Shown: positions 20,207 through 25,222 of the stretch, one piece after another | How the letters are laid out: every line of letters starts with the position of its first letter | Position numbering within the stretch: the stretch's first letter is position 1 | Assembly: GCF_044324785.1 (NCBI RefSeq) | Contig: NZ_CP172127.1 | Length of the DNA: 64,000 nt | Reading direction: 5' to 3' (one strand) | DNA from: Escherichia coli | GTDB taxonomy: Bacteria > Pseudomonadota > Gammaproteobacteria > Enterobacterales > Enterobacteriaceae | The notes under the pieces: generated by a model | The model's input: only the letters and a program-made list of their open reading frames with translations | Told to the model about the DNA's origin: nothing | The model's database searches: none | Translations under genes and position numbers: made by a program

Positions 20207-22396
20207 ATGTTTGTGGAGCATAACCTGATAAAAAATATCAAGATATTCACACTAGCGTTTACGCTCACCGTGGTACTTATTCAGCTATCCCGTTTTATTT
20301 CGCCACTTGCCATTATCCATTCCAGTTATATCTTTCTGGCGTGGATGCCACTGTGCGTAATGCTGTCAATCTTGTTTATCTTTGGCTGGCGCGGTGTCGT
20401 TCCCGTTTTATGCGGGATGTTTTGCACCAATCTGTGGAACTTTCATCTCTCTTTTTTACAGACTGCGGTCATGCTCGGCAGCCAGACGTTTGTCGTGTTG
20501 TGTGCCTGCGCAATATTACGCTGGCAGCTGGGGACGCGTTGGCGTTATGGTTTGACCAGCCGATATGTCTGGCAACGTCTGTTCTGGCTTGGTTTGGTGA
20601 CGCCGATCGGCATCAAATGCAGCATGTATCTTGTGGGGAGCTTTTTTGATTTCCCGCTAAAGATATCCACCTTTTTCGGCGATGCGGATGCCATTTTCAC
20701 AGTCGTTGATTTACTAAGCCTTTTCACCGCTGTGCTGATTTACAACATGCTTTTCTACTATCTCACTCGCATGATTGTAAGTCCCCACTTTGCGCAGATA
20801 TTGTGGCGCAGGGATATCGCTCCGTCGTTGGGCAAAGAGAAACGCGCATTTACCTTAAGCTGGCTGGCAGCGTTAAGCGTGCTGCTACTTCTGCTGTGCA
20901 CACCGTATGAAAATGACTTTATTGCCGGTTACCTGGTGCCCGTTTTCTTCATTATCTTTACCCTCGGGGTCGGTAAGCTCCGCTATCCGTTTTTAAATCT
21001 CACCTGGGCTGTTTCAACGCTTTGCCTTCTGAATTACAACCAGAACTTTTTGCAAGGGGTGGAAACCGAATATTCGCTGGCATTTATTCTCGCAGTGCTG
21101 ATTTCCTTTAGCGTTTGCCTGCTCTATATGGTGCGCATTTATCATCGCAGTGAATGGCTTAATCGCCGCTGGCATTTGCAGGCGCTGACCGATCCGTTAA
21201 CGCTCCTACCCAACTTTCGTGCGTTAGAACAAGCGCCGGAGCAAGAGGCGGGCAAGAGTTTTTGCTGCCTGCGCATTGATAATCTTGAGTTTATGAGCCG
21301 TCATTACGGCTTAATGATGCGCGTTCACTGTATCCGATCAATTTACCGTACGCTGCTGCCGTTGATGCAGGAAAACGAAAAGTTGTATCAATTGCCGGGT
21401 AGTGAACTGCTGTTAGTGCTGAGTGGACCGGAAACGGAAGGGCGACTCCAGCATATGGTTAACATCCTGAATAGTCGGCAAATTCACTGGAACAATACCG
21501 GGCTGGATATGGGCTATGGTGCTGCCTGGGGGCGTTTTGATGGAAATCAGGAAACCCTGCAACCCTTGTTGGGGCAGTTAAGCTGGCTGGCGGAGCAATC
21601 CTGCGCACATCACCATGTGCTGGCGCTGGATAGCAGAGAGGAGATGGTTTCCGGGCAGACCACTAAACAGGTGCTATTGCTGAATACCATTCGTACGGCG
21701 TTAGATCAGGGTGATTTGCTGCTCTACGCCCAGCCAATTCGCAACAAAGAGGGTGAAGGTTATGATGAGATCCTCGCGCGACTGAAATATGACGGCGGCA
21801 TTATGACCCCGGATAAGTTTCTGCCCCTTATTGCTCAGTTTAACCTTAGCGCGCGTTTTGATTTGCAAGTGCTGGAATCCCTGTTGAAGTGGCTGGCAAC
21901 ACATCCTTGCGACAAAAAAGGCCCGCGCTTTTCAGTCAATTTAATGCCGCTCACGCTGCTGCAAAAGAATATTGCCGGGCGGATTATTCGTCTGTTTAAG
22001 CGTTATCACATCTCCCCGCAGGCGGTCATTCTTGAGATCACCGAGGAGCAGGCGTTTTCTAACGCAGAAAGCAGCATGTACAACATCGAGCAACTGCATA
22101 AGTTTGGTTTCCGGATTGCGATTGATGACTTTGGCACCGGCTATGCCAACTACGAACGGTTAAAGCGTTTGCAGGCTGATATCATCAAAATTGATGGCGT
22201 CTTTGTGAAAGATATCGTCACGAATACGCTGGATGCGATGATTGTGAGATCAATTACCGATCTGGCGAAAGCAAAGTCATTGAGTGTAGTCGCGGAGTTT
22301 GTCGAGACGCAACAGCAGCAGGCGCTATTACATAAGCTCGGAGTGCAATATCTGCAAGGGTATTTGATTGGTCGCCCGCAGCCATTAGCTGATTAA
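20207..22396 (+). CDS. pdeA: membrane-anchored c-di-GMP phosphodiesterase (MASE1 - degenerate GGDEF - EAL)
   Basis: 729 aa from ATG 20207 (MFVEHNLIKNI...); multi-TM N-terminus, C-terminal EAL domain; synonym yfeA. Confidence 0.88.
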   Translation: MFVEHNLIKNIKIFTLAFTLTVVLIQLSRFISPLAIIHSSYIFLAWMPLCVMLSILFIFGWRGVVPVLCGMFCTNLWNFHLSFLQTAVMLGSQTFVVLCACAILRWQLGTRWRYGLTSRYVWQRLFWLGLVTPIGIKCSMYLVGSFFDFPLKISTFFGDADAIFTVVDLLSLFTAVLIYNMLFYYLTRMIVSPHFAQILWRRDIAPSLGKEKRAFTLSWLAALSVLLLLLCTPYENDFIAGYLVPVFFIIFTLGVGKLRYPFLNLTWAVSTLCLLNYNQNFLQGVETEYSLAFILAVLISFSVCLLYMVRIYHRSEWLNRRWHLQALTDPLTLLPNFRALEQAPEQEAGKSFCCLRIDNLEFMSRHYGLMMRVHCIRSIYRTLLPLMQENEKLYQLPGSELLLVLSGPETEGRLQHMVNILNSRQIHWNNTGLDMGYGAAWGRFDGNQETLQPLLGQLSWLAEQSCAHHHVLALDSREEMVSGQTTKQVLLLNTIRTALDQGDLLLYAQPIRNKEGEGYDEILARLKYDGGIMTPDKFLPLIAQFNLSARFDLQVLESLLKWLATHPCDKKGPRFSVNLMPLTLLQKNIAGRIIRLFKRYHISPQAVILEITEEQAFSNAESSMYNIEQLHKFGFRIAIDDFGTGYANYERLKRLQADIIKIDGVFVKDIVTNTLDAMIVRSITDLAKAKSLSVVAEFVETQQQQALLHKLGVQYLQGYLIGRPQPLAD

Positions 22397-22403
22397 CAGG
22401 CGT

Positions 22404-22437
22404 AAAAAAGCCGGGGAATGATCCCCGGCTTTTTTAT
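22404..22437. terminator. bidirectional rho-independent terminator between convergent pdeA and nupC
   Basis: aaaaaagccgggga-atga-tccccggctttttt. Confidence 0.85.
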
Positions 22438-22445
22438 GTATGGTT

Positions 22446-23648
22446 TTACAGCACCAGTGCTGCGATTGACGCAGACAGCACACTCACCAGGGTAGAGCCG
22501 TAAACCAGCTTCAGACCGAAGCGAGAAACCACGTTACCTTGCTCTTCATTCAGGCCTTTAACTGCACCTGCGATAATCCCGATTGAAGAGAAGTTAGCGA
22601 AGGAAACCAGGAACACAGAGATGATGCCTTCAGCACGCGGAGAGAGCGTGGAAGCAATTTTCTGCAGATCCATCATCGCAACGAACTCGTTGGAAACCAG
22701 TTTGGTCGCCATGATACTGCCCACTTGCAGTGCTTCACTGGAAGGAACACCCATCACCCATGCAATCGGATAGAAGATGTAGCCCAGGATGCCCTGGAAG
22801 GAGATGCTGTAGCCAAACCAGCCAGTCACGGTGGCAAACAGTGCGTTCAGCGCGGCGATCAGGGCGATAAAGCCGATCAGCATCGCGGCAACGATAATGG
22901 CAACTTTGAAACCTGCCAGAATGTATTCACCCAGCATTTCGAAGAAGCTCTGACCTTCGTGCAGGTTGGACATCTGGATGTTTTCTTCACTGGCATCAAC
23001 ACGGTAAGGGTTGATCAGCGACAGCACGATAAAGGTGCTGAACATGTTCAGTACCAGTGCCGCAACGACGTATTTCGGTTCCAGCATGGTCATGTATGCA
23101 CCAACGATGGACATCGACACGGTGGACATCGCCGTGGCAGCCATGGTGTACATGCGATTGCGGGAGATTTTGCCGAGGATATCTTTATAGGCAATAAAGT
23201 TTTCAGACTGACCCAGAATCAGGGAGCTGACGGCGTTAAAGGATTCCAGTTTGCCCATGCCGTTGACTTTGGAGAGCAGGAAACCAATTGCGCGGATAAT
23301 CACCGGCAACACGCGAATGTGCTGGAGAATACCGATCAGTGCAGAGATAAAGACGATTGGGCACAGCACTTTAAGGAAGAAGAATGCCAGGCCTTGATCA
23401 TTCATGCTACCAAAGACGAAGTTAGTCCCTTCGTTGGCAAATCCGAGCAGTTTTTCAAACATTTCGGAGAAGCCTTTCACGAAGCCTAAACCAACGTCGG
23501 AGTTCAGGAAGAACCACGCCAGTAACACTTCGATAACAAGCAGTTGAATAACATAACGGATACGAATTTTTTTGCGGTCGCTGCTTACCAGCAGTGCGAG
23601 AATCGCAACAACGGCAAGTGCCAGTACAAAATGAAGGACGCGGTCCAT
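22446..23648 (-). CDS. nupC: nucleoside:H+ symporter (CNT family)
   Basis: 400 aa from internal ATG ([14 protein letters not shown]...); concentrative nucleoside transporter family. Confidence 0.92.
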
Positions 23649-23915
23649 ATTTGCTCCAAATATGAGGCAGGTTAAATTTCCGTGCACATTCTATGTAACA
23701 TGGTTAAGGAAAACGAGATCTGACACACACTATAATGACGTCCTGTGACAAGCTTCAAAAATAGTGAGCTGTCATACATTTCTGCTATGTTGTGTATGGA
23801 AGCTGAAAGTTATGTAAATGTGCTAACATTAAACATAACCATAACATTCAAGTCATCAATCTTTTCGTAGTCATAATCCTGGTCTATCAGAGAAATCACC
23901 ACAACCCATTTAAAT

Positions 23916-23934
23916 GAATTTGATAATCATTCTC
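23916..23934 (+). promoter_or_regulatory. Fur-box-like operator upstream of mntH
   Basis: gaatttGATAATCATTcTC, close to Fur consensus GATAATGATAATCATTATC. Confidence 0.5.
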
Positions 23935-23949
23935 GTTTGGCATAGCATG

Positions 23950-23971
23950 AAACATAGCAAAGGCTATGTTT
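23950..23971 (+). promoter_or_regulatory. MntR operator (inverted repeat) upstream of mntH
   Basis: Perfect inverted repeat AACATAGC-aaag-GCTATGTT 13 bp upstream of mntH ATG. Confidence 0.6.
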
Positions 23972-23974
23972 TAG

Positions 23975-25222
<1,248 letters not shown>

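Follow-up and report, generated by a model that had tools for sequence, protein, structure and literature searches.

The mntH promoter of Escherichia coli and its two metal-sensing repressor sites for Fur and MntR

Dual repression by Fur and MntR, together with activation by OxyR, has been textbook knowledge for mntH since 2000–2002. The promoter of E. coli K-12 mntH was reportedly described by Patzer & Hantke in 2001 and by Kehres et al. in 2000. For mntH of Salmonella enterica, Kehres et al. are said to have placed in 2002 an OxyR motif immediately upstream of the −35 element, a Fur motif over the −35 element and an MntR inverted repeat between the −10 element and the ribosome-binding site (RBS). 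Regarding E. coli, reviews describe separate MntR, Fur and OxyR sites in the mntH promoter and state that Fur and MntR each repress mntH transcription independently. The literature also places an OxyR site in this promoter and has OxyR activating mntH, and RegulonDB curation lists OxyR as an activator of the E. coli gene and both Fur and MntR as its repressors. Finally, mntH-lacZ is reported to be repressed by Fur.

We compared these descriptions with a window of E. coli DNA, the whole stretch of 64,000 nucleotides analyzed here, in which the nupC–mntH intergenic region is the locus of both operator motifs. The gene nupC is the divergent neighbour of mntH and lies on the minus strand. Across the 461-nt intergenic query, the window, from an O157:H7-like strain, is 100% identical to E. 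coli O157:H7; among complete E. coli genomes, 5,424 of 5,426 contain the query. The locus and the named regulators (Fur, MntR and OxyR) are the same as those of the K-12 mntH promoter, and there is no functional difference between the two. A K-12 derivative differs from the window at just three intergenic positions (23751, 23768 and 23905), which spare the Fur and MntR sites. The difference at 23905 falls within the OxyR-like block, and the segment 23906–23989, which spans both operators, the −10 hexamer, the Shine–Dalgarno sequence as well as the start codon, is identical. The layout in the window is also the one reported for Salmonella enterica mntH. We are confident in reading this region as the mntH promoter of E. 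coli with two published metal-sensing repressor sites, one for Fur and one for MntR. Which protein belongs to which box is taken from reviews, curation tables, a published matrix scan and what the primary papers reportedly describe. Dual Fur/MntR control of mntH is already known, and nothing functional is new at the operators. The sequence-only reading had matched the locus to this known control, and the reviews, RegulonDB, Chen et al. (2007), the ChIP-exo data and the mntS and mntP sites all agree with it. The features of the region are as follows.

23873–23909, plus strand: conserved block, probable OxyR binding region (position, conservation and literature)
23913–23937, plus strand: Fur operator cluster (consensus, published matrix and conservation; extent inferred from the row in Table 4 of Chen et al., 2007)
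23914–24003, plus strand: ypeD, 29 amino acids, 'protein YpeD' in RefSeq (annotation, of ribosome-profiling origin)
23920–23925, plus strand: −35 hexamer TTGATA (promoter scan), overlapped by the Fur core
23943–23948, plus strand: −10 hexamer TAGCAT (promoter scan)
23950–23971, no strand: MntR operator, perfect 9-4-9 inverted repeat AAACATAGC-AAAG-GCTATGTTT (sequence, matrix and conservation)
23974–23977, plus strand: Shine–Dalgarno GAGG of mntH, 6 nt before the ATG (sequence and conservation)
23984–25222, plus strand: mntH coding sequence, the regulated gene, encoding a 412-residue Nramp-family Mn2+/Fe2+ : H+ symporter (open reading frame)

The consensus scan gives one plus-strand promoter, composed of TTGATA, a 17-nt spacer and TAGCAT. 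To describe its conservation, we use a scan of species-representative genomes, which yields 80 Enterobacteriaceae mntH loci (Escherichia to Klebsiella, Raoultella, Kosakonia and Buttiauxella) and, with the window, an alignment of 81 sequences. The MntH orthologues of the 80 species are 89–99% identical, all from the aligned ATG. All 81 sequences have TTGATA unchanged, followed by a spacer of 16 or 17 nt. The −10 hexamer occurs as TAGCAT, TAGCTT, TAATAT, TAACAT, TAGTTT or TAGCCT, so that positions 1, 2 and 6 (T, A and T) are constant and variation is seen at positions 3–5 only. This pattern, as expected for a −10 element, together with the invariant −35 hexamer and the spacer, supports the promoter assignment, and the promoter geometry predicts a transcription start near 23955. 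Downstream, AGAGG, TGAGG or a close variant is found at the Shine–Dalgarno position in 81/81 sequences. An in-frame TAG at 23972–23974 lies upstream of the mntH ATG at 23984; thus, 23984 is the first possible mntH start. This ATG is kept in every one of the 81 sequences, and the RefSeq start is identical. The start at 23984 had been called earlier and was said to be confirmed by the operators. The call holds on the in-frame TAG, the GAGG, the conserved ATG and the RefSeq annotation, whereas the operators alone do not confirm it. On the minus strand, a promoter-like site at 23758–23729 (TTGAAG, 18 nt, TATAGT) is directed toward nupC and lies about 80 nt upstream of the inferred NupC start at 23647; the longest nupC open reading frame starts at GTG 23687. 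nupC is known to be controlled by CRP/CytR.

At the MntR site, aacatagc-aaag-gctatgtt is read at 23951–23970. The perfect inverted repeat described there by the sequence-only reading is indeed present and perfect, but its 8-4-8 length has to be corrected: the symmetry runs one more base on each side and gives a 9-4-9 palindrome at 23950–23971. The palindrome's own pattern has a single occurrence in the window. Since such a search is circular, we used in its place a leave-one-out MntR matrix, which is based on three independent sites only, namely the mntS site and the two mntP sites of K-12, in both orientations. The mntH palindrome scores 27.6 bits with this matrix, compared with 12.2 bits for the runner-up in the 64-kb window and a highest score of 21.05 bits in 200 random 64-kb sequences. 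The second-best match, at 23165–23186 in nupC, is judged a chance match because its 12.2 bits equal the random mean maximum. A literature search for the literal operator sequence returned unrelated primer matches only.

Palindromy as such is not rare in the window, which contains six perfect 9-4-9 inverted repeats, and 22 when loops of 0–8 nt are allowed; most of them are G+C-rich and terminator-like. It is the sequence, not the palindromy, that puts 23950–23971 beyond chance. The core ATAGC-N4-GCTAT of this sequence is found once at the start of K-12 mntS/rybA and twice upstream of mntP. The MntR box opens 2 nt past the predicted −10 hexamer, extends over the predicted start of transcription (∼23955) and the early transcribed region, and closes 2 nt before the Shine–Dalgarno sequence; this position, relative to a predicted start point, is compatible with repression. 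As for the other perfect palindromes, a G+C-rich 9-4-9 repeat, AGCCGGGGA-ATGA-TCCCCGGCT, is located at 22409–22430, where pdeA (ending at 22396) and nupC (ending at 22446) converge, and is likely to be a bidirectional terminator, and four more are found at 5851, 8806, 28245 and 39657. A direct repeat of CATAGCA, 12 bp apart, is also visible (23941–23948 and 23953–23960), and its first copy contains the −10 hexamer. We considered this first copy, CATAGCAT at 23941–23948, which repeats the left half-site 12 bp upstream, as a third MntR half-site and rejected it, since other species carry TAATAT or TAACAT there and keep only the −10 signature T-A-x-x-x-T.

At the Fur site, gaatttgataatcattctc is present at exactly 23916–23934, where the sequence-only reading had placed a Fur-like box, and matches the 19-bp Fur consensus GATAATGATAATCATTATC at 15 of 19 positions. 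This 19-mer lies within the Fur cluster, whose strong 7-1-7 core TGATAATcATTCTCg (23921–23935, centre 23928) matches TGATAATnATTATCA at 12 of 14 positions. A weaker overlapping 7-1-7 element, TGAATTTgATAATCA, lies six bases upstream (23915–23929) and matches at 10 of 14 positions by hand count. A search of the window for the 19-mer with up to three mismatches gives no match, because the mntH site itself has four. Fur matches as good as that of mntH arise in 16–26% of random 64-kb sequences, and two other loci of the window equal it.

12063–12081, minus strand: Fur-consensus match with 4/19 mismatches, inside ligA
20226–20240: Fur-consensus match with 2/14 mismatches, in the first codons of pdeA

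Both are judged chance matches, occurring at the expected background rate. Given this rate and these two equal loci, matching the Fur consensus is by itself weak evidence; what supports the mntH site as real is its −35 position, its column conservation, and the published matrix and ChIP data. Chen et al. (2007) derived an information-theory matrix for Fur from 24 sites and found only 42 clusters above 17 bits genome-wide, with 10.1 bits for the lowest proven site. In their Table 4, the mntH cluster has 19.9 bits, two walkers and a 25-bp span at −56 from the start, which corresponds to about 23928 in the window, where the C in the middle of the 7-1-7 core lies. Neither a footprint nor a gel-shift flag is given for mntH in this table; thus, mntH appears to be absent from the training set of the matrix. 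A Fur matrix trained on sites picked by their consensus would be circular; the score we cite comes from a published independent matrix, and the sequence at this site is identical to that of K-12. Binding of Fur in vivo is documented by published ChIP-exo data, in which the core Fur regulon shared by nine E. coli strains, O157:H7 Sakai among them, comprises 36 genes and includes mntH.

The Fur core departs from the consensus at two positions, C at 23932 and G at 23935. In the sampled E. coli variants, TTGATAATCATT is constant, and natural changes at 23932 and 23935 shift the core toward the Fur consensus, up to the perfect TGATAATCATTATCA. Some strains have A both at 23932 (for C) and at 23935 (for G), which produces this perfect form. 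The G at 23935, which is the allele of both the window and K-12, is the minority state across Enterobacteriaceae, so the affinity of Fur for mntH may vary between strains.

Both motifs are present in 80/80 species loci at the same distance from the ATG. The mean column conservation in the 81 sequences is as follows.

Fur 7-1-7 core, 23921–23935: 0.978
MntR box, 23950–23971: 0.976
Fur cluster, 23913–23937: 0.945
RBS, 23973–23979: 0.94
−10 hexamer: 0.93
mntH codons 1–10: 0.876
linker, 23936–23942: 0.81
OxyR-like block, 23873–23909: 0.735
DNA further upstream: 0.485

Within E. coli, the segment 23913–23975 is identical in 3,334 genomes and just 90–95% identical in 885. In the sampled variants, the changes are confined to the linker (23936–23942) and to positions 23932 and 23935, and the MntR box does not vary.

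The sequence-only reading mentioned neither the OxyR-type region at 23873–23909 nor the overlap with YpeD. This block ends about 10 nt before the −35 hexamer, and CTATCAGA and AATCA within it are near-invariant in the 81 sequences. The OxyR consensus consists of four ATAG-type elements at 10-bp spacing, ATAGnTnnnAnCTAT-N7-ATAGnTnnnAnCTAT. The best match to it in the intergenic region is 23873–23909, with 13 of 20 specified positions, a score tied with 12 other positions of the window and thus not significant by itself; allowing up to three mismatches, the consensus has no match in the window. Position, conservation and literature, not score, support the OxyR assignment. The block is probably the published H2O2-responsive OxyR activator site, and its extent is a predicted one.

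The arrangement of the sites suggests how control would operate. When iron is sufficient, Fe2+-Fur dimers would occupy the Fur cluster (about 23913–23937), and Fur on the core would occlude the −35 hexamer TTGATA and block docking of RNA polymerase. When manganese is sufficient, Mn2+-MntR, a dimer of the DtxR family, would bind the 9-4-9 palindrome at 23950–23971 and, lying over the start point, may block open-complex formation or promoter escape. Since the Fur core overlaps the −35 hexamer and the MntR box adjoins the −10 hexamer, both proteins most likely repress by blocking RNA polymerase, that is, sterically, from two independent operators of a single sigma-70 promoter. The strong Fur core has its last base at 23935 and the MntR box its first at 23950, which leaves 14 nt between them; with no overlap, either repressor should be able to act alone. 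The importer MntH would then be produced only under iron or manganese shortage, and under H2O2 stress oxidized OxyR would most likely activate the promoter from 23873–23909.

Two other explanations of the operator-like motifs concern the sites themselves. The 9-4-9 palindrome could form a hairpin in the 5′ leader of the mntH RNA, acting on mRNA stability, attenuation or access to the RBS, and not an operator. In isolation, the 22-nt RNA does form a perfect stem of 9 bp (−9.3 kcal/mol, z = −5.8), and the other five perfect 9-4-9 palindromes of the window resemble terminator hairpins. However, 23950–23971 is A+T-rich and has no T-run, and from the predicted transcription start (∼23955) only 4 bp of the stem are left (−2.7 kcal/mol, z = 0.29), and the leader folds no better than shuffled sequences do. 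Covariation is also absent: of the 81 sequences, 60 have A in place of G at 23968 and 12 have C in place of T at 23970, both in the right arm, and the left arm compensates for neither. The AAAG spacer, by comparison, is fixed in 80/81, showing that the sequence and not the pairing is conserved, as expected of a protein operator, and the same ATAGC-N4-GCTAT core stands at other MntR-controlled promoters. An Rfam search gave snoZ185 as its sole match (E = 0.88, far under the gathering score); thus, neither compensatory changes nor a credible Rfam family indicate a structured RNA leader or riboswitch, and we regard the hairpin explanation as extremely improbable. It is also very unlikely that the Fur-like box is an A+T-rich match arising by chance and kept only through the −35 hexamer, with iron acting on mntH indirectly, even though equally good matches are frequent in random sequence, both other such loci of the window are coding, and the invariant TTGATA doubles as the −35 hexamer. 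Promoter spacers ordinarily vary freely. Here, conservation exceeds the hexamer, covering the whole 7-1-7 core and extending into the spacer (ATCATTCTCA). Moreover, E. coli variants at 23932 and 23935 approach the Fur consensus, the published 19.9 bits rank among the top 42 clusters genome-wide, and mntH is a member of the core Fur regulon by ChIP-exo. Operators for Fur and MntR thus remain the preferred reading of both motifs.

The third explanation starts from ypeD, which spans the Fur box, the −10 hexamer, the MntR box, the Shine–Dalgarno sequence as well as the first 20 nt of mntH, with its stop codon 20 nt inside mntH. Selection on this small protein could account for the conservation of 23914–24003 and leave the operator-like motifs secondary. 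It is annotated in RefSeq, a ribosome-profiling study reports initiation at its ATG together with homologues in Salmonella and Citrobacter koseri, and the ATG is kept in 72/81 sequences. In the part of the supplement of the ribosome-profiling preprint that was covered, no ypeD entry is found. The frame itself is broken or shifted in most species, with the DNA motifs unchanged. It is 29 amino acids long in 12/81 sequences (the window counted; 11 with an ATG start), 11 in 40/81 and eight in three Escherichia genomes, and it is likewise cut to eight in sampled divergent E. coli lineages (VTB97074v and AH21E028). In Enterobacter and relatives, a 1-nt indel between the boxes (..LILIALNIAKAIF..) shifts the ypeD frame and touches neither box. 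Neither reading frame nor length is therefore conserved among relatives, and alignment by eye shows no pattern of variation at third codon positions. Read as codons, the Fur core gives the conserved YpeD residues LIIIL and the MntR box gives KHSKGYV, so conservation of the peptide is explained by conservation of the operators. The ATG has no Shine–Dalgarno sequence, precedes the −35 hexamer by 6 nt and appears to fall in the weaker upstream Fur half-cluster. Judged from these sequences, YpeD is probably not a protein under selection, and its selection is a most doubtful cause of the conserved motifs.

A different role for ypeD is likewise very unlikely: in the Escherichia–Salmonella–Citrobacter group, it might be a translated uORF whose coding sequence doubles as the operators and which couples to, or interferes with, mntH initiation on a second, upstream-initiated transcript. 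If so, ypeD translation would add a post-transcriptional layer to the Fur/MntR/OxyR control of mntH. The ypeD ATG is upstream of the predicted −35 hexamer, and the promoter consensus scan finds no convincing promoter upstream of ypeD. CATAAT at 23872–23877 is a possible −10 hexamer upstream of ypeD and is not conserved outside Escherichia. More generally, small open reading frames lying on regulatory sites need a control for the conservation of the underlying operators.

With the Fur and MntR operators as the preferred reading, the mntH locus serves as a positive control for a sequence-only reading. The earlier statement that operator detection works at the sequence level is borne out here, as real operators were recovered at mntH. 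What made the case was conservation and comparison with independent sites, not the palindrome or the Fur consensus alone.

Lastly, we compared the two operators with the known sites of each regulator. The K-12 palindromes used for MntR are as follows.

L083, 766–787 and 806–827: K-12 mntP MntR-type palindromes, two sites 40 bp apart
L082, 1055–1076: MntR-type palindrome at the 5′ end of K-12 mntS/rybA

The mntS (rybA) and mntP sites share with mntH the ATAGC-N4-GCTAT core and A/T-rich outer arms. They are imperfect, with three or four mismatches to the mntH palindrome, and mntH has the sole perfectly symmetric site. The mntP sites lie about 360–420 nt upstream of the ATG; there, MntR reportedly activates and does not repress. 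Regarding Fur, the classical boxes of fepA-fes, fhuA, cirA and other genes are 19-bp GATAAT-type or 7-1-7 elements, with a 6-bp offset between overlapping sites, that lie on the −35/−10 region, like that of mntH. The mntH cluster is short (two walkers, 25 bp) compared with those of siderophore genes (up to 14 walkers, 140 bp) and, unlike the classical Fur boxes, is paired with a second metalloregulator site. The Salmonella loci (L012 and L013) have an identical MntR box and, as Fur core, the perfect TGATAATCATTATCA at the same distance to the ATG. Compared with Salmonella, E. coli thus has two departures in the Fur core (C at 23932 and G at 23935), and the sequence of the OxyR-like block differs.
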